From a virus (Duplodnaviria > Caudoviricetes): a stretch of DNA of 64,000 nucleotides. The position numbers and the translations under genes were made by a program. Every line of letters starts with the position of its first letter. Within the stretch, counting starts at the first letter, position 1. This document shows, in pieces, positions 3,001 to 40,126 of this stretch. The DNA lies in the IMG/VR virus record IMGVR_UViG_3300031555_010858, positions 64,001-128,000 of that record; one strand, 5' to 3'. The notes beneath the pieces are model-generated. The model made no database searches, was not told the DNA's origin, and worked only from the letters and a program-made list of their open reading frames with translations.

Positions 3001-3661
3001 CAGGGTTAACTCTTAATGTCCAACCTGTTTTAGAAGTTATTAAAAAATCTATATCACCTAATTTAAAAAATTCTTCGGGTTCTCTTTTCATTAAGATATA
3101 TAAATAAGTCATAGGGTTTACAGCTTCTCCCCTATTGTTTAAATCATTAACTAAATCATTACTAAACTCTTCAACGTTCATTATCATTGATTTCATAGGA
3201 TATTTATCTAATGGTAATTCACCTATATATCGCATGATAAATTCCCAATACTCTTTAGGTTTAACTATTCTTGTTATCATAGATGAGTTAGTACTAAATG
3301 CTGTATTTGCATACGAAAGTTCAAAGAATACGTTAAATCCCATATTAAGTTTACCTTCATTTATACCATTTAAATAAGGTAATTCTGCACGTATTTGATC
3401 ATAGTAAGCTTGACGTCCTTGTAATCTATTTTCTCTAACTAACTTACTTCTTATCTTGATTTGTTCTAATCTTTTAGCATAACACATAGTAACCACGTTA
3501 TTATATTCTAGATTAATAGTACCTAATTTAAGTTTTAAGTTTTTAGTATCCATTGTATTCATTATAACTAATGAACCATATCTTTTATTCTTTTGGTCAT
3601 ATTGTATAACAGGTCTTAATCTAGTTCTTTTTAATAATGGTAATTTATTACTAGTAATCAT
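1..3661 (-). CDS. Multisubunit RNA polymerase beta-like subunit, N-terminal/middle piece, probably virion RNAP; truncated at window edge and absent from ORF track
   Basis: Manual translation from ATG at 3661 (MITSNKLPLLKR..., RBS GAAAGGGTGA) stays open to base 1. Beta motifs: YLGGNRK, SSSPDANVG (cf. TPEGxNIG), DDSVRTTMSCRQ (cf. DDANRALMGANMQRQ), TYEDS (cf. NFEDS). Preceded by a late-type promoter. Confidence 0.85.
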   Translation of the reverse strand, partial: MITSNKLPLLKRTRLRPVIQYDQKNKRYGSLVIMNTMDTKNLKLKLGTINLEYNNVVTMCYAKRLEQIKIRSKLVRENRLQGRQAYYDQIRAELPYLNGINEGKLNMGFNVFFELSYANTAFSTNSSMITRIVKPKEYWEFIMRYIGELPLDKYPMKSMIMNVEEFSNDLVNDLNNRGEAVNPMTYLYILMKREPEEFFKLGDIDFLITSKTGWTLRVNPAECKRTMNTDANKANIAALYRKELFKMLNREDPEEGSVSAEIDSILAQNKADISKSLIDKYVFGATGDAGVPEDVKNKIEAEVEKVLDKNQEMDENDVKKEIEKDEKLMKEIVMANNKNIAKTAASNKRDELLREKQLEIAVRGKTLEEILNMKSEEVEVPVNDVSSHVDTINKNVTDIRYPNIDKAYVEQLMEKDMVSMFTDMNNKSIKVFVRNISVEDTSDISNYKETWTIELEDELRVRHKVVFDVPKIIEGRYLYLGGNRKYINNQQLLLPIVKVDPDTVQLVSNYNKIFIRRYGEKVSQTNEKLKKALSEEIKGIRVQRGKFDSENEGFVTTIDYDDLSKLFKEVNINGTRIIFDQKEIRHILLDRNIKGLEGRLDVELLPLGIKGNEYYCIDLKSDNVVIINAQGKTQSTGKTLVEFILSLSPALSAKVGEQSAGKKYMYSRATIMSKQVPIVLLLCYFEGIDGFLKRADIKHYFSDTRPRLAPDENCIQFQDGYLIYTNKPIATSLLMNGFIDIPTKNYNYSDLNDKFVYQSMFETMFGRRNIANAFDNFQDNFIDPMTLDVLKRLNLPTDLTGMVLYGNELLADNQYTHEITVSRIRCAEVVNAIVYKNVASAYEKYKETANFNNPTKISIERGAIIKDIMKQQTVEDYSELNPIYEQQNLRKCLRKGPSGCNLAQAYTEEQRSYHPGMAGVFTLSSSPDANVGVNRFLTLEPPITDPRGFIDNKALQGKVTEYNDANLFGVAELLTPGCASGDDSVRTTMSCRQSTHCVAVAKSSPVLVSNGAERVMPYHCTKDWVFVAKDNGEVKEYDEKLGLLIVEYKNGEHDAIDINRIAKNGAGGFNISKHMAVNVKKGDKFKKNDILAYEDKFFSENSAFGNRFNVGSLQKVALLSSSLTYEDSSYISKKLSREMATEVVMQKQAVLGPNTTVDYMVKIGDKVQNGDELIRFEKSFSEDVINQLLFNVGDEFKEEIIMSGKEKIKSKYSGVIEDIK

Positions 3662-3698
3662 TAAATCTCACCCTTTCGTTATTTACTCTTTATTCACT

Positions 3699-3710
3699 TA
3701 CAAAATTGTT
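3699..3710 (-). promoter_or_regulatory. Putative late promoter AACA-N6-TA for the beta-like gene
   Basis: Minus strand reads AACA-ATTTTG-TA, the same as the site at 13010-13021; matches the AR9 late consensus. Confidence 0.65.
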
Positions 3711-3733
3711 TTTGCCTTGAAAAATCGACGGTT

Positions 3734-3844
3734 AAAACCCCTATGCCAATCATAGGCATAGGGTATATGTCAAAACAATAACAATAAGAGGTAAGATGTT
3801 TATGTTTCAAGTAATATGATGATTCCGATACCATCATTTTACTT
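3734..3844 (-). ncRNA. Candidate ~110-nt small RNA with an anti-RBS segment
   Basis: Late-type promoter at 3844-3855(-). 5' hairpin ATGATGGT/ATCATCAT has a G:U pair only on the minus strand. GC-rich terminator CCCTATGCC/GGCATAGGG plus U-tract at 3734-3763. No RBS-led ORF on this strand. Confidence 0.55.
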
Positions 3845-4017
3845 ACTAATTTGTTATACTAAATTAAATTTTATAAAAACCTTATTATAATTTATCAACA
3901 TACCAACAACTTCTTAATGCGATAGCAGCATTAAGAATAAAACGAACCTCCTTAAGAGGTGAGTGAAGAAGTTGTTAAAATAAAAATATGGTTGGGAAGT
4001 TACGTTTATTTTTGCTG

Positions 4018-4056
4018 TGTAAAAAGGTTAAATTTCAATTATATATTATAAAAGTG
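4018..4056 (+). promoter_or_regulatory. Putative early promoter TGTAA-N19-TATATTAT-AAAAGTG
   Basis: One of six copies with identical spacing; the core resembles the phiKZ early TATATTAC motif. Confidence 0.75.
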
Positions 4057-4094
4057 AATATTTCATTAATGATTTAAATCATTAATGAAATATT
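4057..4094. repeat. Perfect 38-bp palindrome
   Basis: AATATTTCATTAATGATTT|AAATCATTAATGAAATATT, immediately after the early promoter. Confidence 0.95.
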
Positions 4095-4134: not shown

Positions 4135-6195
4135 ATGTCTATGAATAATAATTTTAATTTTGATTTAAATAAATATATTGAATTTGAAAATCAAATTTTA
4201 AATGAAGTAGAAGAAATTTATGGTGGAGATAAAATATTCGATTTAAACAAAATCATATCCGATTATGATGAGTTTAAAACAATGTACGGACATATATATT
4301 ATATATTAGAAGAAGGATTTGAGATAGAAGCTATAAGAAAATTTCCAGTAAAAGTAACATTTGATAAAAACAATGAACATTATGTTGAAATGGAAATTAG
4401 ACATTTATTAATAAATATGATATTCTTAAGAGCATTTGTAGAATTAGAAGTTGAAGTAGAATTAGATATAACATATTTATTTGATGCTAGAAAGATTTCT
4501 AATAAGTATATCAAACAGTATATAGATGAAAAAATAATAATTCCATTTAAAGATCAATTTACAGAAACTGAAGAAGGTTTTATGGAATTGAATATAGTAT
4601 TACATGATATAATCTACAGATTAAACAAGATACCAAAAGATTTTAATAGTCTTATGGGAATAACAATAAATCTTGAGAATAGTTTTATAAAAGTTGCAAA
4701 AGAAAATAAAAGATTTAATGAATTAATAAGAACTAAGATACCAGAAGATATGCAACCAAAAGATATAGAAAATCATCTTAATAAATTAATGAAAGAAGAA
4801 GTTGAGATATTAAAAGAAACTCCAAACTGTTTCCAACCAATGTTAATAGCAGGTGGAGCAATTAAAGAAGAACAACTTAGAGAGTTCTCAATTAACGGAG
4901 GATTAAAATCAGACCTATTAGGTAACACAATTCCAATACCTATCAATAGTAACTTAATAGTTGGAGGTTTTAGTAACATAACAAACTATTTTATAGATGC
5001 TGGAGCTTCAAGAAAATCATTAATAGCTAATAAAGAGAAAATGGGTAGTTCAGGACATATGGCGTTATTAATGAAATTATCTTGTGTTGGAACTTATATC
5101 AGTGAAACAGAAGATTGTCATACACCACATACAGTTAAATTAACAATTAATGATAGTAAATTCTTAGAAATGTGTGTTGGAAGATATTATAGATTACCAG
5201 GTATGAGAGAGTTTAAATTATTAAAGAAATCTGATACACATTTAATAGGAAGAACTATATTAGTTAGAGACCCAGGTAAATGTGGATGTAAAGATGGAGT
5301 ATGTAAAACATGTTATGGAGCTTTATCTAAAGTTAATAAAGGAATGGATGTTGGTATATTTGCAGCAACGATTATATCAAGACCATTATCACAAAATATA
5401 TTATCAACAAAACATCTTAACACAACTAATAGTTGTCTTATAGAGTTTAATGATGCATTTGATAAATCATTTAAACTTGAAGCAAACCAAGTTAAAATGT
5501 TAAGTGATAATGAAACTGATGTTGATTTAAGTCAATATGAAATGGTATTTGATAATATAATACAAATTGATGAATTATTAGACAATGCAGATTTTAATAA
5601 ATTTGTACAATTTGTTAAAGTGAGAAACATTAAGAATCATGATGAATATTATGAGATAGTTGAAAACGATGGAAAAGAATTATTTATACATCCAGATTTA
5701 GATGCTATAATTAAGAAAACAGAATCTGATGAAGATGGAGTTATATTAATACCGTTTAGCAGATTATCTGAAGAAACATTATTCACAATAAACATAGAGA
5801 ACAACGAATTAACTAAACCATTAAAAGAAATGGATAAACTTCTAAGTGGATCTTATTTCAAAGGAATGAATCCAACATTAGATATGATGGAACAAAGATT
5901 TATAGAATTATTAATAGAATCTAAAATCAGTGTATTATCAATACATGCAGCAACAATATTAAGATCATTTGTTAGAGATGCTAATAATTATTTAGAAAGA
6001 CCTAATTTCAATAAATTATTTGTAGATTATGTTGTATTAGGTATGCACGCATCATTAGCAGATAATCCATCTATAACAAATAGTTTAGCATACGATTATC
6101 TAAAATCTCAACTATATACACATACAACATTTAAGAAGCATAAACATTCACCATTAGATTTAATGTTTATGAAATCTCTAGCTGATGTAGAATAG
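4135..6195 (+). CDS. RNA polymerase beta'-like subunit, C-terminal piece, probably non-virion RNAP; likely start 4141
   Basis: Bridge-helix region (YFIDAGASRKSL...SSGH), EDCHT, Zn-site C..C...CKTCYG, trigger-loop VGIFAATIISRPLSQNILSTKH (cf. [22 protein letters not shown]). No DxDGD. Early promoter upstream. Confidence 0.85.
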   Translation: MSMNNNFNFDLNKYIEFENQILNEVEEIYGGDKIFDLNKIISDYDEFKTMYGHIYYILEEGFEIEAIRKFPVKVTFDKNNEHYVEMEIRHLLINMIFLRAFVELEVEVELDITYLFDARKISNKYIKQYIDEKIIIPFKDQFTETEEGFMELNIVLHDIIYRLNKIPKDFNSLMGITINLENSFIKVAKENKRFNELIRTKIPEDMQPKDIENHLNKLMKEEVEILKETPNCFQPMLIAGGAIKEEQLREFSINGGLKSDLLGNTIPIPINSNLIVGGFSNITNYFIDAGASRKSLIANKEKMGSSGHMALLMKLSCVGTYISETEDCHTPHTVKLTINDSKFLEMCVGRYYRLPGMREFKLLKKSDTHLIGRTILVRDPGKCGCKDGVCKTCYGALSKVNKGMDVGIFAATIISRPLSQNILSTKHLNTTNSCLIEFNDAFDKSFKLEANQVKMLSDNETDVDLSQYEMVFDNIIQIDELLDNADFNKFVQFVKVRNIKNHDEYYEIVENDGKELFIHPDLDAIIKKTESDEDGVILIPFSRLSEETLFTINIENNELTKPLKEMDKLLSGSYFKGMNPTLDMMEQRFIELLIESKISVLSIHAATILRSFVRDANNYLERPNFNKLFVDYVVLGMHASLADNPSITNSLAYDYLKSQLYTHTTFKKHKHSPLDLMFMKSLADVE

Positions 6196-9031: not shown

Positions 9032-11155
9032 ATGGAAGAAGCTAAGAAATCATTTATTAGCATAATTAATAGTTTTTTATATAAACCTTTAACACGAAAA
9101 GAATTTGTAGCTCAATTAAAGATTGAAAATGTTGAAGAGTTTTATAAAATGTTAGATGAACTTGAAAAAGACATGTATTTTATAGAAACTAAAAAAGGGA
9201 GAATAATCCCTCCATCTCAAGTTGGTCTTTTTGTAGGTAAGTTTATATCTCATAGAAAGGGATTTGGTTTTATAGAATCTGATAATGAAAATGAGCGTGA
9301 TTTATATATACAATCTAAAGATGTTAATGGAGCAGTTCATGGCGATAGAGTAGTTGCAGAAATAACTAAAGAAGCTTCAGGGTATAAAAGAGCAGAAGGT
9401 AAAGTTGTTCAGATAATAAAAAGAAATGTTACACAAATAGTTGGGGTATTTAAACCTCATGAACATTTCGCTTTCGTAGTTCCTAAAAGAACTGAATTTA
9501 AATCAGATATTTATATACAAGAGAAATATTTTAATGGTGCCGAAGAAGACGATATGGTATTAGTAGAAATAACTAAATGGGAAGTTGATAACAAAAAACC
9601 TGAAGGTAAAATAATAGAAGTATTAGGAAATAAAAACAATAGAGGAATTGAAATAGAATCTATTATAAGAGAACATGGATTACCTTTAGAGTTTGAACAA
9701 AAAGTATTAGATAATGCAAATCATGTAGCAGTTCCTATACCTGAAGAAGAATATGAAAGAAGAAGAGATTTAAGAGATAAACATATATTTACAATGGATG
9801 GAGCTGACGCAAAAGATTTAGACGATGCTATACAAGTAGAAATGTTAGATAACGGTAACTATTTATTAGGAGTTCATATAGCAGATGTTACACATTATGT
9901 TAAAGAAAAGTCTAACTTAGATAAAGAGGCTTTAAAAAGAGCAACATCTGTTTATCTTGTAGATAAAGTAATCCCTATGTTACCTAAACAATTATCAAAT
10001 GGTGTTTGTAGTTTAAATCCTGATGAGGATAAATTAACTTTATCTGTATTTATGGAAATAACTGGGAAAGGAGAAGTTGTTAATTCTAGTATAGAAGAAA
10101 CTGTAATCAAATCTAAAGCTAGAATGGTTTATACAGACGTTTCAGATATATTAGAAAATAACGATAGAGAATTAAAGATTAAATATGCTGATTTAGTAGA
10201 TGATTTTAGATTAGCAGAAAAACTTGCTAGAATTCTTATGAAGAAAAGAGAGAAGAGAGGTGCTCTGGATTTTAACTTCCCAGAACCTTATATACATTTA
10301 GATGAAAATGGGATACCTTATGATATAGAACCTTATGAAAGAAGAATTGCTAATAAAATAATAGAAGAGTTCATGCTTGTAACTAACGAAACAGTTGCTG
10401 AATATTTTTATTGGTTAGGCATGCCTTTTGTTTATAGAATACATGAAACACCTAGTTCAAGTAAAGTTGAAGCTTTAAATAAATTTATACACAACTATAA
10501 TTTATTGATAAAAGGTGATACGGAAGAAGTTCATCCAAAAGCAATCCAAAAAATATTAAAATCTATAGAAGGGAAGAAAGAAGAAAGGGCTATAAGTTCT
10601 TTAGTATTAAGATCTTTAAAACAAGCTAAATATTCTCCTGATTGTAGTGGTCATTTTGGATTAGCTGCTAAGTTTTATTGTCATTTTACATCACCTATAA
10701 GAAGATATCCAGATTTACAAATCCATAGAATAATAAAAGAATTTATTAATGGTGGTATAAGTAAAGGAAGACAAAATAAATTAGATGCTATAGTTTTAAA
10801 AGCTTCAGAACAATCTTCTGAGATGGAAAGAAAAGCAGAAGTCGCTGAAAGAGATATTGATAAATATTACAAATGTTTATATATGGAAAATAAAATTGGT
10901 CAAGAATTTAAAGGATTTATCTCAAGTGTAACACATTACGGATTTTATGTAGAACTTCCAGATACAGTAGAAGGATTAGTTCCTATAGAAACATTAAAAG
11001 ATGACTATTATGAATATAATGAAAATACACATGAATTAATAGGTCAAGGACATAGTGATGAAATGCACATAATAGCGTTCAGAGTTGGGGATGAGGTAAC
11101 AGTTAAACTAACAAATGTTAATGTTGAAGCAAGAGAAATTACATTCGAATTATAA
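9032..11155 (+). CDS. rnr: Ribonuclease R (RNB family 3'-5' exoribonuclease)
   Basis: N-terminal HTH, cold-shock domains (KGFGFI, AVHGDRV), catalytic DGADAKDLDDAI, HFTSPIRRYPDL, C-terminal S1 domain. Confidence 0.95.
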   Translation: MEEAKKSFISIINSFLYKPLTRKEFVAQLKIENVEEFYKMLDELEKDMYFIETKKGRIIPPSQVGLFVGKFISHRKGFGFIESDNENERDLYIQSKDVNGAVHGDRVVAEITKEASGYKRAEGKVVQIIKRNVTQIVGVFKPHEHFAFVVPKRTEFKSDIYIQEKYFNGAEEDDMVLVEITKWEVDNKKPEGKIIEVLGNKNNRGIEIESIIREHGLPLEFEQKVLDNANHVAVPIPEEEYERRRDLRDKHIFTMDGADAKDLDDAIQVEMLDNGNYLLGVHIADVTHYVKEKSNLDKEALKRATSVYLVDKVIPMLPKQLSNGVCSLNPDEDKLTLSVFMEITGKGEVVNSSIEETVIKSKARMVYTDVSDILENNDRELKIKYADLVDDFRLAEKLARILMKKREKRGALDFNFPEPYIHLDENGIPYDIEPYERRIANKIIEEFMLVTNETVAEYFYWLGMPFVYRIHETPSSSKVEALNKFIHNYNLLIKGDTEEVHPKAIQKILKSIEGKKEERAISSLVLRSLKQAKYSPDCSGHFGLAAKFYCHFTSPIRRYPDLQIHRIIKEFINGGISKGRQNKLDAIVLKASEQSSEMERKAEVAERDIDKYYKCLYMENKIGQEFKGFISSVTHYGFYVELPDTVEGLVPIETLKDDYYEYNENTHELIGQGHSDEMHIIAFRVGDEVTVKLTNVNVEAREITFEL

Positions 11156-19000: not shown

Positions 19001-20641
19001 TTAGGTGCTGAAAACTTAGTTAACCTTGGTATGAATACAGAAGATAACCAACCTTGGTCAACTGCTAGGTATCCAAATGAAGGTTTCTTCCAAGCTACTA
19101 GTATAACAGGTTATCATGAAACATTCTTAAATACTGTACCTAAAGTACAAATAGTAGCAGGAATGTTTAGAAACTGTAAATCATTAGTGGACTGTCACTA
19201 CTATGAAGGATCTAACGTATTAACACGTGGAAATAGTGTTTGTGAAGATTTATTTATAAATAACAAACTTATTTATGATATGGGTTGTTTCTTTGAAGGA
19301 TGTAGTAAAATTGAAGGACATATTCCTAAAGGTTTATTTAAAAATTCAGCTCAGTTATTACAAACTGTTTCATATATGTTTAGTGGTTGTGCTGCTCTTT
19401 CAGGAGTTAATATAGATGTTAGAAATGGTGAAGACCCACAAACTGGTATAAGTAATGAATGGTTTAAAAATTGTGGAAGTTTAACATCGGTTTCAGCATT
19501 TATAAATGGTTGTGAAACTTTCACTGGTACTATACCAGAAGATTTATTTGTAGATTGTGTTAACTTACAACAAGCACAATACTTCATGCAAAATTGTAAA
19601 ATGGTTTCTGGAGGAATACCATTATTATTATTCGATACTTGTAGAAAAACATTAACTAATACAACAGGTATGTTTGCTGGTTGTGAATCTATCGATGAAG
19701 AATTACCAACTGGTGAATATGAAACTGTGCAAGGTATAACATCATATAAACTAGTAACAGCGGATACTGAAGGTGCGTTACGTGTTGTAGAATTTATGAA
19801 CGATCCATTTACAGAAGTTGCTTATTCGGACGTTGTTAACTTATCTCCTAACTTAGCTACTATAATTAATGCTAGTGGTAACTATTATGTTATAGCTGAA
19901 ATAGGTGATGCTATAAAAGTTAATCAATTAGGATTATTGGCGGAATGTTTAGAACTTACTAGTATTTCTAACATGTTTAATAAATGTATAAAAATGCCAG
20001 GTGGAATACCACATGACTTATTATTTACAGAAAATCAATCTCGTAAATATACTAAACTTACAAATATTTCAGGATTATTTAAAGATTGTCAAGCTATAAA
20101 TAAAGGTTATATTGAAGAGGAGACAGGTATAACTTATATTTGTAATCCTGTATTATTTGAAAAATGTACAGCACTAACAGATTGTAGTTCTGTATTTAAT
20201 AGAATGTATAAAGTTCCTACTAACTGTCAAGTACATCCTAGAACATTTGATAAACAAGCTAAAGTTACTACTGTTTATGAATTATTTATGGGTACACCAG
20301 TTACAGGTGCTGTATCTCCATTATTATTTGGAAACTCAATAAACACTATTACAGATGCAAGAAAAATGTTCGCATTTACTAATATGACGAGTGTTGGAGC
20401 GACATTCTTAAATGGTGGAGGTCAAAATAAAAAATTAAGAATGGTTTATGGTATATTCTATAGATGTGCTAATCTTGAAGGTACATCTCCTGAATTCTGG
20501 AACGGAGCTAAATTTACAGCATTACAAGGAGATCAAAATGGTTTCTGGGGTGCATTACATCAATGTACTAAAGTAACTAACTATAATGCAGCTAAAGCTG
20601 TATCTGAAGATTGGATTAAACAACAACAAATTTACTTATAG
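13064..20641 (+). CDS. Giant putative virion/tail protein: LamG-like, CotH-type kinase and LRR/BspA-like repeats
   Basis: Tail-type N-terminal motif (PTEGTYLTGD...WICNEGGTPGVW); LamG-like EWVHITLV...VYINGV; CotH-like QGTSSLQYPVKNY, TLKCDY, DNCGKN, PRPYDMDT; C-terminal LRR and MFxxC repeats. Late promoter at 13010-13021. Confidence 0.75.
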   Translation: MSENNKKNKLISDKNNTYFTENRIMRGSSIPTEGTYLTGDMIINDSATSVDEPIWICNEGGTPGVWSSVSSTSTTIVPNYRDMLKSKANVGSIFYIISDESDDDNPGFYIVTSVKEDENGKKVPATWDKINKKESSIPTLSYDASMPEGTKIYLKDDEELIIKFNFMSNTYGDGKYRVYRDGSLVKAWNGAKGSVIANLGRITTDGSYTITVTATDYLTIPAPETLTFKVIVGGLKLTSTFEETLLTAIYEEGDSVEFPYIASLADASANMKLNIGIVNVETGETVAETTEVLEGTYMESVWTSTGIPKRGLYRLHAQAYTGESVNDTTEGVFTSNKLEYVFRVLEENEIAIIDEAKDQQVDTNMYFSIPFRVISKIADYFVMTGELYKDNLGSWELVAKTADAGISSRVNITNYWSVGKLEEGTYRYILKAYTVDRLVETKEPAIKVMTVVTSTYQKVPYIDNPNLIAYFDANAKRNNDGSPDVWQNSSRHTGDKYRILLHGLNYSSNGWKHIDETLTDEDDGEMMLKFTGESYGELVQMVNGEPRPYSPFSIFSMGGQQGFTLETAIRTRNIGELNARVMTCMKADSIGDPGVAISYDTMAIGSNLQVNKLQFVEDEWVHITLVVDNNVRTFDHVGQAMIEDANPTKTLRVYINGVLCSCTTLSEKDEFLDGSKQAYPLILNACRMINAAGEISFENFGECEIKFIRIYNSFLKSSEVLQNYISHIYDSEEQQKKNDKNNLEIASLPTIVFKRKGGEEFKGNAKFATLHSIKDKKESKKTFVDCVMEYDDGEGNIIVFDNVDVYLQGTSSLQYPVKNYKIKTWVDQEKTSKFKFAPPNAPDWVEDSCYTLKCDYMEQSHKNNTPTARFYNQVIDELGGMSPAKKDGYHDAIDGFPCIVYYNEGEASSENVLVGSFMFNIDKEGKELGFECDLYDDHGDVIGSGKDSCISYEATANANDTAGCFYKLEDSIKNVYKYYLDDSYEEYLKEYGLTPEKCTMDQFKAGIADGTISYLTFEEFVADYDEIDYIMDDFEARYTFNEDDEKATYRPMVDLVNWVSDSIKAGTFKKDFEAHLDLTYTLAYYLQMQMFTQVDNCGKNSMWDTWDGVKFYPRPYDMDTQMGLSNTGTEIIRVDAEILDDMSPTNAEGTFAGSSHIDETTDLRYMNYNTTSSKLWNAFAEEFKDEIKKAYNQLRSSGVYSYENITRSIWADTDDVIGEIYFNKDAASKYLSQVTEKDSTYLQMLHGNRAQKYKKFLKERLIFLDTIFDYKESGSLNTEIGLRSDAAYGQGEGTTVRCYLGISTYSPQYVTVSIGSGADGKVTAYVGPESRYKDPDTGIEHEGTLFSFPIRGVNKEMAITGAGNIKRINRLQSLNLTEARIEHATKILELDFSYSNRMNGLKVGNNIYLRNLNCTNSYLLGTATESQSLDLSNCKNLKTVDIAYTAFTGIVFPRDTVLNSINLTGSSIKNISIDGAEFLDDIRITGCDNINKFELNRCNRIETVDVAGSTIQNFTVTNCTKVKDVNLSECKSIAGFDVTNSYNIETLNMKGNTSPVMRDLKLYSMYNLKKLIVSQTTSAHTIRLPKYLNEIEAIKAANGESALPWDTLEHLDLSNSSVTKIQYGSEDVKDEVIDMIQLTNLSFLSFDSATSLTEIRDIQFTGNLQRLFYACKNLTKISGELTNANNSISNLFASCYLLSDIDGLDFNFVGVTNASYMFDRCFRAKTPMIKKLLDACGGTLTDITGMCHMYSEDQLVGILGTSEDTTTEIPADLFSENRNLQNAYHAFDITGYTSVHGDLFNPCADTINNLSYTFSRMPNLTTVGPNLLHNKPKLNTVSSIFASSHKLTHYIDEYPNIFIGSPNITSTFAMFSGCYTLASGEEGLGEMMYPLVNLTNCAYMFFDCYQNLTCEIPNGFLSKNTKLTKMNGMFQRCRKIPTVPESLFRVNIGDTNKLPNLTKAVGVFAECNAMEGIVSSRFFLGAENLVNLGMNTEDNQPWSTARYPNEGFFQATSITGYHETFLNTVPKVQIVAGMFRNCKSLVDCHYYEGSNVLTRGNSVCEDLFINNKLIYDMGCFFEGCSKIEGHIPKGLFKNSAQLLQTVSYMFSGCAALSGVNIDVRNGEDPQTGISNEWFKNCGSLTSVSAFINGCETFTGTIPEDLFVDCVNLQQAQYFMQNCKMVSGGIPLLLFDTCRKTLTNTTGMFAGCESIDEELPTGEYETVQGITSYKLVTADTEGALRVVEFMNDPFTEVAYSDVVNLSPNLATIINASGNYYVIAEIGDAIKVNQLGLLAECLELTSISNMFNKCIKMPGGIPHDLLFTENQSRKYTKLTNISGLFKDCQAINKGYIEEETGITYICNPVLFEKCTALTDCSSVFNRMYKVPTNCQVHPRTFDKQAKVTTVYELFMGTPVTGAVSPLLFGNSINTITDARKMFAFTNMTSVGATFLNGGGQNKKLRMVYGIFYRCANLEGTSPEFWNGAKFTALQGDQNGFWGALHQCTKVTNYNAAKAVSEDWIKQQQIYL

Positions 20642-20648
20642 AATTTTT

Positions 20649-20687
20649 AAAATACATAGAGGACTTTTCCTCTATGTATTTTCTTTT
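20649..20687 (+). terminator. Intrinsic terminator
   Basis: AAAATACATAGAGGA/TCCTCTATGTATTTT plus T-run. Confidence 0.8.
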
Positions 20688-20688
20688 A

Positions 20689-20727
20689 TGTAAAACATGT
20701 ATTTTTCAATTATATATTATATCGAGG
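20689..20727 (+). promoter_or_regulatory. Putative early promoter
   Basis: TGTAA-AACATGTATT-TTTCAATTATATATTAT, same spacing as the other copies. Confidence 0.7.
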
Positions 20728-20755
20728 AATACAAGAAAATAAGGAGGTTGGTAAT

Positions 20756-20992
20756 ATGAAAAAATCTACATTAATAACAATTGCTGATATAGTAAATAAC
20801 ATTGATAACTCTGCAAGAGATTTATATGAAATGTTGGATTTATTAAACGTAACAGAAAATGAGAAAGAAAGAATAACTGATGCAATTATGATTACAGCAG
20901 AAAAAATAGCACAATTAAGACGTGCTAAAATAAGTGAATTAGATGAGTTTGTAGATGTTAATTATATAGAAACACATATTAATAGATATTAG
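20756..20992 (+). CDS. Hypothetical early protein
   Basis: RBS AAGGAGG, 78 aa. Confidence 0.75.
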   Translation: MKKSTLITIADIVNNIDNSARDLYEMLDLLNVTENEKERITDAIMITAEKIAQLRRAKISELDEFVDVNYIETHINRY

Positions 20993-20998
20993 GAGGTA

Positions 20999-21520
20999 AT
21001 GTATATGGAACAAGAATATTGTATAATATATGGATATAACAATGTTGATCCTGGTCCATTTATAATTGGTGTAACTAAAGATCAAAATATGATAAATGGA
21101 TTTAGAGAAGAACATTACCATTTCTGTAAGGGTGGAGAAATAATGGTTGACAGCTTTTATGATAATTTAGCAAGTGATTATGAAATACAATATTTGGCAG
21201 GACATTATCTAACTCCTATGATGATAACAAAATTTATGGAATATCTAACATCACAATATAATCAATTATTTATGTATTTTGATAATATTGAAAGAGATTT
21301 AGATAATCTGAGATTTAGTGAATATGAATATGAAATATTAGATGATGGGTTTGGTTTATTAAGAGAACATTTAGGGGAATTAATGTATACAGTAAATACA
21401 TTAAATATATATGGTGAAGCGGACGTAATAGAAGATTCGGTTTATGGTGCAATATTAAACATACCATTATGTTTAGAAAGATTCTTAGCATCATATCAAC
21501 CAGAAGCAGGATTATATTAA
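20999..21520 (+). CDS. Hypothetical early protein (likely start 21005)
   Basis: RBS AGGAGG; followed by a terminator hairpin at 21521-21550. Confidence 0.75.
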   Translation: MYMEQEYCIIYGYNNVDPGPFIIGVTKDQNMINGFREEHYHFCKGGEIMVDSFYDNLASDYEIQYLAGHYLTPMMITKFMEYLTSQYNQLFMYFDNIERDLDNLRFSEYEYEILDDGFGLLREHLGELMYTVNTLNIYGEADVIEDSVYGAILNIPLCLERFLASYQPEAGLY

Positions 21521-21583
21521 GGATATAACCTTCAGGTTATATCTTTTTTTCTTATCTACAATTTTATAAAGGAGAGTGATACA

Positions 21584-22279
21584 ATGAGATTGGTACCAAA
21601 ACAAATAGAAAGTTATAAGAATGATAGACTTATAGAGGAAGTTGATATTTCTAAGATCCCTGATGTTGATATGATATATAATATAGCTTCTGAGAAAGAT
21701 AAGATTAAAACTGTTAAGACATGTGAAAGAATGATACGTTCTAGTTTAGAGTATAAAGATTACATTAAGTTTCTTAAAGATTATATTGATATGACTAAAT
21801 GTAGTTTCTTTGGAAATTCTAAGATGGATCATTATAGTAAGTTTAAAGTAGAAATTCATCATTCGCCATTTACATTATATGATATAACTATGACGGTTCT
21901 TCTTAAACACATGGATTATTATGGGGAAATTAATCTATTTGAAATATGTGAAGAAGTTATGAAATTACATTATCAATGTAGAGTTGGGTTAATACCTTTA
22001 TCAACAACAGTTCATAAGTTAGTACATGAGGGAATGTTATTTATACCTGTTCAAAATGTTAGAGGAGATTGGTTATTATTCTATAAAGAATATGAACCTT
22101 ATATGCCTCAAGATATGAAAGACAAGTTAAAGAATATAGTAAAATTCTCTAAAGAATGTCAAGATTATTCTCTATTGGAAACTAAATATACATATATTGA
22201 TGTAGATGGTTTCAGACCTTTATCTTTAATAGGACAGGAAGAATTTATGAAGAAGATTGTTACAGATCCAAAAAAATAA
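21584..22279 (+). CDS. HNH-like/His-rich jumbo-phage protein, paralog of 33419-34093
   Basis: RSSLEYKDYIKFLK...C...VEIHHSPFTLYDI...PLSTTVHKLVH; promoter TACA-N6-TA at 21557. Confidence 0.6.
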   Translation: MRLVPKQIESYKNDRLIEEVDISKIPDVDMIYNIASEKDKIKTVKTCERMIRSSLEYKDYIKFLKDYIDMTKCSFFGNSKMDHYSKFKVEIHHSPFTLYDITMTVLLKHMDYYGEINLFEICEEVMKLHYQCRVGLIPLSTTVHKLVHEGMLFIPVQNVRGDWLLFYKEYEPYMPQDMKDKLKNIVKFSKECQDYSLLETKYTYIDVDGFRPLSLIGQEEFMKKIVTDPKK

Positions 22280-22322
22280 GAAAAATAAAACAAATATTTA
22301 AAACAAGGAAGGAGTGTAAAAG

Positions 22323-22649
22323 ATGGAAAACGAAATAAGATATTATCCGTATAATATGATAGGTGAACTAGTGAACGCTGATACTGAAAGTGTAACCAAT
22401 ATGTTAAAATCTATGGGTATATTGGCAATAGAAGAAAATCCTAATACTACTGTTAAATTAGGAAAACTCTGTGTTAATATAAAATTTAGAGCTAGGGAAA
22501 GAGAATTATACGCATTATATTTTAGGGAGAGATTTATTTTTAAACGTGGTAGACAACATTTCATTTTTGAAATAACTGATGAGTTCGTTGAATTTGTTAA
22601 AGATAAAATCGAGAAAGAGGGGTGCTTATATAATGTACAATTTAAATAA
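22323..22649 (+). CDS. Hypothetical protein, possibly DNA-binding
   Basis: RBS AAGGAG; late-type promoter at 22289-22300. Confidence 0.7.
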   Translation: MENEIRYYPYNMIGELVNADTESVTNMLKSMGILAIEENPNTTVKLGKLCVNIKFRARERELYALYFRERFIFKRGRQHFIFEITDEFVEFVKDKIEKEGCLYNVQFK

Positions 22650-23133
22650 TAAATACTGTACATTGGAAATTCTATTAAATGAACTTTATTGTTTATTTGA
22701 AGTAGATTCTCCTGTGTTTATCGATGACCTTGGCTATAAATGGTATGAATTAGTTAACGTTCTTAGGATATTACAAATAGATGAAGAAGAGTATATAAAT
22801 GGATGTTATCTAATGACTATTGAGGATGACACTTTTATATCAGAAGAGGGTATAAATATATTACTGTTAGATTATGACAATGAATATAGAGATGAAATAA
22901 TGAACTATTTAACACTAGATGTTATGCCAGATATTAAATCAGATTTAATGTACTTAGGTTATGACCTAATAGAAAGTGTTAAAAATATTTCATTAAAAAC
23001 GATGAGTGAAAATAATAATGAATTTAATGCAGCTGCAAAAATGAATAATTATGTTTCGAAAAAAACACATAGAATTTCAAAAAGAGACGATATGAGAAAT
23101 GAAACTAAAAATAAAAAGAGACATAAACGTTAA
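22633..23133 (+). CDS. Bro-N-like protein (divergent)
   Basis: Start moved to 22633 (RBS GAGGGG); W.ELVNVLRIL and FISEEGINILL resemble Bro-N motifs. Confidence 0.45.
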   Translation: MYNLNNKYCTLEILLNELYCLFEVDSPVFIDDLGYKWYELVNVLRILQIDEEEYINGCYLMTIEDDTFISEEGINILLLDYDNEYRDEIMNYLTLDVMPDIKSDLMYLGYDLIESVKNISLKTMSENNNEFNAAAKMNNYVSKKTHRISKRDDMRNETKNKKRHKR

Positions 23134-23162
23134 TGAAATTTTATCCAACATAACAATTATGT

Positions 23163-23438
23163 AGGGAGAAGAATAAAAGTGGAGGGTACGGGAGTATGTG
23201 TATATACTACATTATATATATGCTCGCTAGATTGCATCTCGCCACCGAGGCTTAGTAGGTTTATTCTCAACTAATCACACTTTTGGCTAATAGTGTGGTG
23301 TACCGTATACTGATGTAGGAGTGAGCGGTATTTGTTAATAGTGTTACTTATCAATAGTGGATAAGGTAAGATAGCATTATTAACTAAATAAAATATGTGT
23401 ATATAGTGAATTCATATCACTATATACACATATTTTTT
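23163..23438 (+). ncRNA. Candidate ~275-nt multi-stem structured RNA
   Basis: Late-type promoter at 23152-23163. At least five stems, several with plus-strand G:U pairs. 20-bp terminator stem at 23390-23436. No ORF. Confidence 0.65.
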
Positions 23439-23552
23439 CCGTACTGTTTAATTAAATAAAAAATATATTTTATCAAATTTTATTGGAGGTAAAATTCTAA
23501 TGATCCCAGAGAGATCTTAGAGTAGTCCTATGACTACTTATAGATATGTTTG

Positions 23553-23591
23553 TGTAAATTGGTGTTATTTTGATTATATATTATAATAGTG
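23553..23591 (+). promoter_or_regulatory. Putative early promoter
   Basis: TGTAA-ATTGGTGTTA-TTTTGATTATATATTAT-AATAGTG. Confidence 0.7.
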
Positions 23592-23615
23592 AATAAATAT
23601 AAGGAGGTATTTAAT

Positions 23616-24179
23616 ATGAATAATTCTATTTATGTTGTAACTGATGGCAGTTCTATAAGTGCTAATAATTCTAAAGGATTTGATGCAGCTGCTGCATATG
23701 TTATATATGTAAATGGTAAAATAGTTCATAAAGAATCTATCTTGTTAAGAAACCATACGAATAATTATGCTGAAATGTACGCTATATATAAAGGAACTAA
23801 ATATGTATTAGAAAACATGGTTGAGATACATGATTGCAATAATGTCGTAATTATAACTGATTCACAATTATGCGAAAAATCGTTAAATGAATGGATGAAA
23901 GGTTGGTTAAAGAAAGCAACTGACGAAACTCTTATGAGTACAACAGGAGAAGTAAAGAACCAAGAATTAATTAAATCTGCATATATAAATATATTATCAT
24001 TACAATTGTTTATTCCAGTTTATATATGCCATATTAATTCACATAATAACGAAAGTAAAATACTTCATATGCATAAGAAATTCATAGACAAATATTTTGA
24101 TATAGATTTAGAAACATTTAAAATGATATTCGAAGGTAATCAAATAGTTGATAAAATGGCTTATGAAAAATTAAATTAG
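23616..24179 (+). CDS. rnhA: Ribonuclease HI
   Basis: Catalytic motifs TDGS, TNNYAEM, ITDSQ, HINSH, GNQIVDKMA; start moved to 23616 by RBS. Confidence 0.88.
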   Translation: MNNSIYVVTDGSSISANNSKGFDAAAAYVIYVNGKIVHKESILLRNHTNNYAEMYAIYKGTKYVLENMVEIHDCNNVVIITDSQLCEKSLNEWMKGWLKKATDETLMSTTGEVKNQELIKSAYINILSLQLFIPVYICHINSHNNESKILHMHKKFIDKYFDIDLETFKMIFEGNQIVDKMAYEKLN

Positions 24180-24220
24180 ATATAACAAAAATATATGAAT
24201 AAAAAATAGGAGGTAGATTT

Positions 24221-24970
24221 ATGAGAAAATCAGTAGATCATTTAGGAGAAGAGTCTTTTAATAAGAAGGGAACTGTCATGAAAATAATAGAATATATTAA
24301 TAATAGAAAAGTGTTAGTTGAATTTCAAGATGAATACAAATATCAAACTTATACAAATTATCAAGCATTTATAAAAGGAGAAGTTAAAAATGTTTATGAC
24401 AAATCTGTATATGGAGTAGGGTATATAGGTGAAGGACAGTATTCACATAAAACCCATCCTCATAGTTATAATGTATGGAAACATATGATAGCTCGTTGTT
24501 ATGATAAAGTAACTGCAACATCAAATCCTTCATATATCAATTGTTATGTATCTGATGATTGGCTTTGTTTTCAAAATTTCGCAAGTTGGTTCGATGAAAA
24601 TTATTATGAAATACCAGGCGAAATTATGCATTTGGATAAAGATATTTTAATTAAAGGTAATTTACAATATTCATCTGAAACGTGTACATTCGTACCACAA
24701 AGGATAAATAGTTTATTTACAAAAAATGATATGCGTCGAGGTAATTTACCTATCGGTTGTTATTATCATGGTAAAAGTATATATGTATCATGTAATACAC
24801 TCGATGGTAGAGTCCAATTAGGTAGATATGATACGACAATAAAAGCTTTTGAGGCTTATAAAATGTTTAAAGAAAAATATATTCAAAAAGTTGCAGATGA
24901 ATATAGAGATATTATACCAAACAATCTTTATGAGGCTATGTATAATTATAAAGTTGAAATTAATGATTAG
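24221..24970 (+). CDS. Free-standing HNH-type homing endonuclease
   Basis: VYGVGYIG, WKHMIARCY, W..FQNFASW, LDKDIL..GN..YSSETC.FVP..IN, AP2-like C-terminus (LGRYDT...AF.AY). Confidence 0.8.
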   Translation: MRKSVDHLGEESFNKKGTVMKIIEYINNRKVLVEFQDEYKYQTYTNYQAFIKGEVKNVYDKSVYGVGYIGEGQYSHKTHPHSYNVWKHMIARCYDKVTATSNPSYINCYVSDDWLCFQNFASWFDENYYEIPGEIMHLDKDILIKGNLQYSSETCTFVPQRINSLFTKNDMRRGNLPIGCYYHGKSIYVSCNTLDGRVQLGRYDTTIKAFEAYKMFKEKYIQKVADEYRDIIPNNLYEAMYNYKVEIND

Positions 24971-26195: not shown

Positions 26196-26251
26196 AACTT
26201 AATAAATATGAAGAGGATTGTATGATCCTTTTCATATTTTTTTTACCCTGC

Positions 26252-26290
26252 TGTAAAAAGGTATAATTTCAATTATATATTATAAAAGTG
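26252..26290 (+). promoter_or_regulatory. Putative early promoter
   Basis: TGTAA-AAAGGTATAA-TTTCAATTATATATTAT-AAAAGTG. Confidence 0.75.
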
Positions 26291-26323
26291 ATTAATAAAA
26301 TAAAAATAAATAGGAGGTAACTT

Positions 26324-40049: not shown

Positions 40050-40055
40050 CAATAC

Positions 40056-40094
40056 TGTAAAAAGATTAAATTTCGATTATATATTATAAAAGTG
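40056..40094 (+). promoter_or_regulatory. Putative early promoter
   Basis: TGTAA-AAAGATTAAA-TTTCGATTATATATTAT-AAAAGTG. Confidence 0.75.
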
Positions 40095-40126
40095 TAATAC
40101 AAAAATATTATTTAGGGGTTGATATT

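Follow-up and report, generated by a model that had tools for sequence, protein, structure and literature searches.

A newly recognised structured RNA family with two co-evolving loop-loop pairings in AR9-like jumbo phages

In the small podoviruses of the phi29 family, a stand-alone structured RNA of 120-174 nucleotides (nt), the pRNA, is made early, and its loops pair between molecules to give the prohead ring. Jumbo phages of the AR9 and phiKZ type follow a transcription programme of their own, and those of the AR9 type possess their own multisubunit RNA polymerases. To our knowledge, almost nothing is known about non-coding RNAs (ncRNAs) in this programme. Here, we describe an element on the plus strand of a 64,000-nt stretch of phage DNA (positions 23163-23438) that represents a genuine, previously unrecognised family of structured RNAs in AR9-like jumbo phages. 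The stretch, termed the window below, comprises bases 64001-128000 of the 202.6-kb IMG/VR virus record IMGVR_UViG_3300031555_010858 and has a G+C content of approximately 27%. The element lies in a 483-nt gap between an open reading frame (ORF) of 166 amino acids (aa) at 22633-23133 and an RNase H gene that starts with the ATG at 23617. Like pRNA, it is a phage stand-alone structured RNA whose loop-loop complementarity emerges from covariation and that would act through its shape or protein contacts, but its secondary structure is different, it has two separate loop pairs, and it was not matched by the pRNA model (Phage_pRNA) among the 4227 Rfam families.

Two further groups of RNAs are close enough to be compared. 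The expression of GOLLD RNA rises in phage lysis, and many of its members exceed 800 nt (PMC12286853). ROOL and GOLLD share with the window RNA that they are phage-associated ncRNAs without an assigned function that contain many covarying helices and kissing loops (PMC12286853); however, they are far larger, are often found close to tRNA genes and assemble into cages made of RNA only, whereas the window RNA measures approximately 275 nt, no tRNA or tmRNA gene was called in the window by ARAGORN, and the Rfam models for ROOL and GOLLD did not match it. Terminating riboswitches with kissing-loop aptamers, such as those for lysine, purine and cobalamin, resemble the window RNA in having a junction fold locked by loop-loop contacts and followed by an intrinsic terminator. 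Unlike these, the window RNA has no conserved antiterminator and no family match, and with a predicted late-type promoter of its own it would not be an mRNA leader.

The protein encoded by the 166-aa ORF has 95 relatives in a large protein collection, and IMG/VR yielded only two relatives, which are near-identical. By gathering copies from the contigs of these protein relatives and by one DNA-pattern scan of metagenome contigs, we obtained 23 distinct copies of the element, including that of the window; at least 22 relatives thus carry it. A first DNA pattern gave mostly chance matches. All copies are syntenic, lying between the 166-aa gene and the RNase H gene on related metagenomic jumbo-phage contigs, and the adjoining protein is 50-83% identical to that of the window. 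A covariance model built from 15 copies found every copy at full length, with E-values of 1e-17 to 1e-74, and only a single copy in the window's own genome. The plus strand of the element reached a minimum free energy of -93.6 kcal/mol (z = -7.2; 0 of 200 shuffled sequences were as good), compared with z = -3.85 for the minus strand, and constrained folds of 14 lineages had a common layout, P1(P2,P3)-P4-P5-P6-terminator, in which a closing stem encloses two hairpins and is followed by three further hairpins and the terminator (Table 1).

Every helix in this layout is kept by compensatory changes. In a model-guided alignment of 19 homologs, 91.8% of the cells were standard pairs, compared with 73.1% in shuffled controls (0 of 500 reached the observed value) and 30-50% in controls with slid partners, and 70 of the 97 pairs changed on both sides. 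All pair counts refer to these 19 sequences, because MAFFT misplaces the P2 loop in the L022 group (L numbers denote the loci compared), both when whole RNAs and when sub-regions are aligned; the loop pairings were checked by script in all 23 copies. RNAalifold, left to predict a structure by itself, arrived at these helices too, and 54 of the 72 pairs that it predicted are compensatory; its covariation term was -14.7 kcal/mol, and it gave P3 5 bp. G·U pairs made up 223 of 1761 cells (12.7%), and reading the alignment as the minus strand lowered pairing from 91.8% to 79.1%; therefore, selection acts on the plus-strand RNA. A first-pass annotation, written by a model that saw only the letters of the window, had proposed a plus-strand structured RNA, had argued for it from G:U pairs that work on that strand only and had recommended collecting homologs for a covariation test. 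The fold statistics, the strand asymmetry of pairing and the covarying helices bear out both the proposal and the strand argument.

Our main new result is that two long-range loop-loop pairings predicted from the alignment, termed K1 (P2 loop with P5 loop) and K2 (P3 loop with P6 loop), are shown by comparison of the homologs to co-evolve. The K1 strands are complementary in all 23 copies, in the variants CUACAU/AUGUAG, CUGCAU/GUGCAG and CUGCAA/UUGCAG, the P5 loop following the motif [A/U/G]UG[U/C]AG. Pairing of K1 was 100%, compared with 14-51% with a slid partner; of the 19 homologs, 14 have A-U and 5 have G-C as its third pair, and on a tree of the neighbouring protein parsimony requires at least four switches between these two states. 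For K2, we found the variants CCACA/UGUGG, CCACG/CGUGG (in two separate clades), CCACG/UGUGG and, in L031, CCAUAC/GUAUGG. The fifth K2 pair is mostly A-U, is G-C in the clades L024/L025/L039 and L035/L036, is G·U in L022 and is mismatched in L052 and in the window itself; K2 was paired in 98.2% of the cells, compared with 19-39% with a slid partner. The first-pass annotation had paired the CCAC of the P3 loop (23242-23245) with a GTGG at 23179-23182 as a stem. This stem has to be given up: the 5' GUGG is present in only 6 of the 23 copies, and the CCAC covaries with the GUGG of the P6 loop (23357-23360) instead. Together, K1 and K2 would fasten the 3' hairpins to the 5' domain; the sequence is compatible with pairing within one molecule as well as between molecules.

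Two further candidate pairings were rejected. The CCGUAC that follows the U-tract could pair with a GUACGG in the 5' junction, but CCGUAC is near-constant and the junction is variable; likewise, the terminator loop could pair with a UAUGACU in the downstream hairpin, but a variable loop base (G, U or A) is uncompensated.

Outside the loop pairings, the homologs differ in how much variation each part takes up. P4 carries insertions of approximately 60 to 150 nt in seven loci (L003, L028, L029, L030, L033, L034 and L052), an extra hairpin stands 5' of the terminator in L029 and L030, P6 has an insertion in L039, and neither the length nor the sequence of the linker from P6 to the terminator is constant. 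A GUGU/GCAU segment of P6 is nearly invariant, with one G·U and one U-A pair fixed in 19/19 homologs and the other two pairs being G-C in 18 (G·U in 1) and U·G in 17 (A-U in 2). The TACCG/CGGTA stem listed in the first-pass annotation is part of P5. No conserved ORF was found in the RNA among the homologs, and one homolog has no ORF of 20 codons or more.

Table 1. Features of the RNA locus in the window, with the promoter sites discussed in the text. "Double-changed" pairs are those that changed on both sides in the 19 aligned homologs.
Feature	Position	Strand	Description
Predicted ncRNA, whole unit	23163-23438	+	~276 nt; fold z, covariance model, single copy
Late-type promoter motif AACA-N6-TA	23152-23163	+	AACAATTATGTA; AACA 23152-23155, six bases, T23162, A23163 = predicted start
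5' three-way-junction domain	23168-23268	+	closing stem P1 encloses hairpins P2 and P3
P1	23168-23177 with 23260-23268	+	GAAGAATAAA / TTTATTCTC; 9/11 pairs double-changed, 88.9% of cells paired
P2 hairpin, 13 bp	23192-23204 with 23213-23225	+	all 13 pairs double-changed
P2 loop	23205-23212	+	K1a CUACAU at 23207-23212; motif CU[A/G]CA[U/A] in 23/23 homologs
P3 hairpin CUCG/CGAG	23238-23249	+	all 4 pairs double-changed, 93.4% of cells paired
P3 loop		+	K2a CCAC at 23242-23245
P4 hairpin, variable arm	23274-23281 with 23292-23299	+	ATCACACT / AGTGTGGT; 6/8 pairs double-changed
P5 hairpin, outer and inner stem	23300-23311 with 23320-23331	+	7/11 pairs double-changed; inner stem also covaries
P5 loop		+	K1b AUGUAG at 23313-23318
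P6 long hairpin, 19 bp	23334-23352 with 23365-23384	+	14/19 pairs double-changed
P6 loop, 11-12 nt		+	AAUGUGGAUAA-type; K2b GUGG at 23357-23360
K1 loop-loop pairing, 6 bp	23207-23212 (P2 loop) with 23313-23318 (P5 loop)	+	covariation
K2 loop-loop pairing	23242-23245 (P3 loop) with 23357-23360 (P6 loop)	+	5 pairs in the majority of relatives, 4 in the window
Intrinsic-terminator-like hairpin, 20 bp	23390-23409 with 23417-23436	+	T-run 23433-23438 follows; 14/20 pairs double-changed, 97.9% of cells paired
Conserved non-coding block, ~110 nt	23439-23549	+	context; not shown as part of the RNA
Early promoter of the RNase H gene, predicted	23550-23591	+	core TATATATTAT at 23575-23584, six bases, G23591; fits AR9 early consensus
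Extended early-promoter sites	4015-4059, 20686-20730, 23550-23594, 26249-26293, 40053-40097 and three outside the window	+	

In AR9, differential RNA sequencing (dRNA-seq) assigned late promoters to the consensus AACA-(6N)-TA/G, the last base of which is the start site (PMC5312081). The motif at 23152-23163, which the first-pass annotation had already proposed as an AACA-N6-TA promoter, fits this consensus and predicts a start at A23163. Together with the UAGGGAG at the predicted start, it is near-invariant and stands at the same spot in 22 of the 23 copies (L031 has TACA), while its flanks vary. The TAGGGAG start also suggested a T7-like repeated promoter, an idea that we ruled out: neither the 5' motif nor the block behind the terminator recurs in the window. 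At the 3' end, the 20-bp terminator hairpin claimed from the sequence alone is present (23390-23436) and, being followed by a U-tract, is predicted to be of the intrinsic (Rho-independent) type. Its stem base covaries, its apex GUGAAKUCAUAUCAC is kept in most lineages, and stem variants occur in L003/L028, L031, L033/L034 and L052. The hairpin is maintained by covariation in all homologs. A terminator-scan program reported it for the minus strand alone, since it assigns some of the plus-strand T-run to the stem.

Searches for a described family agreed with the first impression that the RNA belongs to no known class. With the 4227 models of Rfam 15, no match at the gathering score was obtained over the whole window, and at E ≤ 10 the region 23000-23700 gave only chance-level look-alikes of microRNA- and pestivirus-type hairpins, the best with 33.7 bits against a gathering score of 90. 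Group I intron models did not match even at E ≤ 10, and the element does not interrupt a host gene as such introns do: it lies between two complete genes in all loci and has its own late-type promoter motif. A blastn search of 22300-24300 against 50,697 phage records returned no match, and the covariance model gave no convincing match in AR9, S6, BpSp or ten GTDB pattern hits.

We consider it probable that 23163-23438 is a free-standing gene for an undescribed family of structured ncRNAs of the AR9/PBS1-like clade, and that this RNA is made late and acts in trans by its three-dimensional shape, as a protein-binding or scaffold particle. The phage's non-virion RNA polymerase would transcribe it late from the AACA-N6-TA motif and would stop at the hairpin and U-tract, after which the RNA would act in the late phase of infection. 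Because nearly all of the conserved loop sequence is engaged in internal pairing and no switchable antiterminator was found, action in trans through shape is the most likely mode; the same use of the loops leaves little for antisense action. The most plausible partners would be the 108-aa and 166-aa proteins encoded directly upstream, which appear to share a single late transcription unit with the RNA, and the tolerance of P4 for large insertions is as expected for a solvent-facing arm. A ribonucleoprotein or decoy role, which the first-pass annotation had raised, gains circumstantial support from these two genes, which are clade-specific, follow a late-type promoter motif and are separated from the RNA by no terminator-like site in our scan. 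With its two kissing loops and its expandable arm, the RNA of approximately 275 nt would give databases and structural work a new family and would be a candidate RNA-protein or RNA-only particle in late giant-phage infection.

Several observations weigh against this interpretation. We infer promoter, terminator and timing alike from sequence, and the bare AACA-N6-TR motif occurs in the window no more often than expected (131 times, against an expectation of 147); because it contains too little information, the promoter call rests on positional conservation and on the analogy to AR9. Since a single phage clade supplies every homolog, independent events are modest in number, and the counted alignment, having been fitted to the covariance model, somewhat inflates the pair counts. 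In addition, K1a and K2b can cross-pair through wobbles (93.6% of the cells), and the assignment of partners therefore rests on Watson-Crick covariation. As for the proposed protein partners, the AlphaFold model of the 108-aa protein, with a predicted local distance difference test (pLDDT) score of 94, had no significant match in the PDB by Foldseek, and its weak similarity to winged-helix DNA binders of the MerR, Xis and RTP type (VIA-align, Z ≤ 4.7) points to DNA binding as much as to RNA binding. The model of the 166-aa protein reached a pLDDT of 72 and has a basic C-terminal tail; it also found no match in the PDB by Foldseek.

Sequence covariation does not distinguish contacts within a molecule from those between molecules, and the RNA might instead assemble with itself, with K1 and K2 forming between molecules to give a closed homo-oligomer (a dimer, a ring or a small cage, similar to phi29 pRNA or the nanocages of ROOL and GOLLD), perhaps together with the 108-aa and 166-aa proteins, that serves late assembly or encloses something. 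We regard this as unlikely. The two loop pairs are near-duplicates (CUACA/UGUAG and CCACA/UGUGG) that can cross-pair through wobbles, as would suit such an assembly, and the predicted late promoter fits a role in the assembly phase. On the other hand, phages of the AR9-like kind package their DNA by terminase, and we know of no RNA component in that process. The intramolecular topology is also simple, with P2 and P3 on one junction and P5 and P6 as adjacent hairpins. The precedent of ROOL and GOLLD, whose loop covariation was first read as tertiary and proved to be intermolecular (PMC12286853), speaks for self-assembly, but at approximately 275 nt the window RNA is far below the size of either.

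It is somewhat less probable still that the element is a cis-acting leader or riboswitch in which an aptamer and a terminator control read-through into the downstream block and the RNase H operon. The locus has the layout of terminating riboswitches, in which a complex fold leads into an intrinsic terminator with same-strand genes behind it, and the 110 nt 3' of its terminator show high conservation and hairpins that covary as well. However, the 70 nt that precede the terminator form no more stable a duplex with its 5' strand than shuffled controls do (mean z = -0.1, 16 lineages), the stem base of the terminator changes freely without any third partner, and no riboswitch family was matched. 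The missing antiterminator signal, the variable linker between P6 and the terminator and the canonical early promoter that the RNase H gene appears to have for itself 150 nt downstream therefore make a riboswitch-like function unlikely.

We attach equally little weight to a 3' untranslated region and terminator module of the late operon of the 108-aa and 166-aa genes, which would shield their mRNA against 3' exonucleases or provide a mark for processing, with the promoter motif being incidental. A scan of 20600-23200 found no terminator-like site after 21546 and hence none between these two genes and the RNA, and the phage encodes an RNase R-like exonuclease against which protective 3' structures could be useful. 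Yet the AACA-N6-TA motif and UAGGGAG are near-invariant in 22 of 23 lineages between variable flanks, and two covarying tertiary contacts and a conserved three-way junction exceed what a protective hairpin needs. If the element merely stabilised a 3' end, the interest in it would fall to that of an unusually ornate terminator region. A DNA-level element (a replication origin, cruciforms or protein-binding palindromes) with the RNA structure as a by-product of inverted repeats is very improbable: the terminator apex is a near-perfect conserved palindrome with a score on either strand, the adjoining non-coding block is AT-rich and highly conserved, and the 108-aa neighbour weakly resembles winged-helix DNA binders, but the 12.7% of G·U pairs would be A·C on the other strand or cruciform arm (79% pairing on the minus strand), the minus-strand fold is much weaker, and the loop-loop covariation has no rationale at the DNA level.

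The free-standing late RNA that we favour has a possible counterpart in AR9 (L062, NC_031039.1), where gp241 is followed by a 560-nt gap (4703-5262 of the locus, 207909-208468 of the record) that folds with z = -6.4. An AACA-N6-TA promoter with its start at 207979 was mapped there as a primary late 5' end and labelled 'tRNA' (Table S3, PMC5312081); a tRNA-Asn gene lies approximately 925 nt downstream. This gap shares the neighbourhood of the window RNA, beside a homolog of the 231-aa protein and near RNase H, and contains two hairpin loops that are complementary over 7 nt (CUUUCAC and GUGAGAG); however, these loops are neighbours, whereas the complementary loops of the window RNA are distant. 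Homology between the two could not be detected: with filters off, our covariance model reached only 12 bits over the 3' half of its length, and in the whole AR9 genome it found nothing. A gap of this type is absent from the related phages BpSp and S6. The AR9 gap possibly encodes an unannotated late ncRNA, which is an analogue and not a member of the window RNA family; as a syntenic mapped late transcript, it offers a possible route to such RNAs in the tractable Bacillus subtilis system.

The 231-aa protein encoded upstream at 21584-22279 belongs to phrog_12252, for which PHROGs assigns no function, and shows an identity of 41% to gp241 of the Bacillus phages AR9 and PBS1 and of 33-35% to proteins of jumbo phages of Staphylococcus, S6 among them. 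Because of these identities and of an RNA polymerase beta'-like fragment that is also encoded in the window, we assign the genome to an uncultured relative of AR9-type jumbo phages. The 231-aa gene is preceded by the late-type motif TACAATTTTATA, which suggests that the late promoters of this clade tolerate T or G at the first position. The stretch 22323-23133, taken as one gene in the first-pass annotation, consists of two overlapping ORFs of 108 aa (22323-22649) and 166 aa (22633-23133), the second in the +1 frame, and this overlapping pair is kept in all related loci. Neither gene had a match in 50,697 phage records, and both are clade-specific as judged from this comparison. A late-type (A/T)ACAA-N-TA motif precedes the start of the 108-aa ORF by 34-43 nt in most lineages. 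The upstream genes had also been described as HNH-like and Bro-N-like, for which we found no basis: no Pfam match was obtained at E ≤ 5, and the only PHROGs match was that of the 231-aa protein. The RNase H placed downstream of the RNA was correctly named (Pfam RNase_H, 2e-13).

The only HNH endonuclease lies 3' of RNase H at 24221-24970 (phrog_953, 2.3e-54), between RNase H and a dCMP deaminase, and is absent from many related loci. A gene of similar size (250-251 aa) occupies the same spot in only some related loci, such as L019 and L023, and is missing in L021, L024 and L033; the HNH gene is likely a mobile homing endonuclease. The upstream gene cluster is punctuated by two more strong terminator-like hairpins with T-runs at 21519-21546 and 20649-20682. 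Farther upstream, an exoribonuclease of the RNase R/RNase II type is encoded at 9032-11155 (RNB, 1.8e-115, with cold-shock, OB and S1 domains).

The non-coding block that follows the terminator is better conserved than the flanking proteins; a 32-nt stretch of it is identical in L003, whose RNase H is 53% identical to that of the window. This stretch and two short motifs of the block are each found once in the genome. The block has two hairpins; in L017 and L024 a deletion removes the first one, and covariation is seen in the second. The block contains CCGTAC and AAATATATTTTAT, with 12 of 13 matches to the AR9 early-promoter core and a T instead of a G at the expected start, as well as an orphan ribosome-site-like GGAGGTAAAAT and a short ORF that is not conserved among the aligned homologs. 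Its GGAGGUAA is the complement of UUACCUC.

Early promoters of AR9 have the consensus AAATATATATTAT-(6N)-G (PMC5312081), and the predicted early promoter of RNase H lies approximately 150 nt 3' of the RNA element. An extended consensus of approximately 40 nt, TGTAAAAAGGT..TTTCRATTATATATTATAAAAGTGA, which extends the AR9 early motif, is found at eight sites of the 202-kb genome, each of them on the plus strand; the 11-nt core has a ninth match, at window position 4293, that lacks the flanks. In L026 and L027, a tandem duplication of approximately 100 nt (GTACATAGACGTAGGAGACTAAACTA ... CCCTCAGGAGGAGGTAG) lies between the early promoter and the next gene (at about 3400-3840 / 3940), and the duplicated region of L027 contains a run of N.

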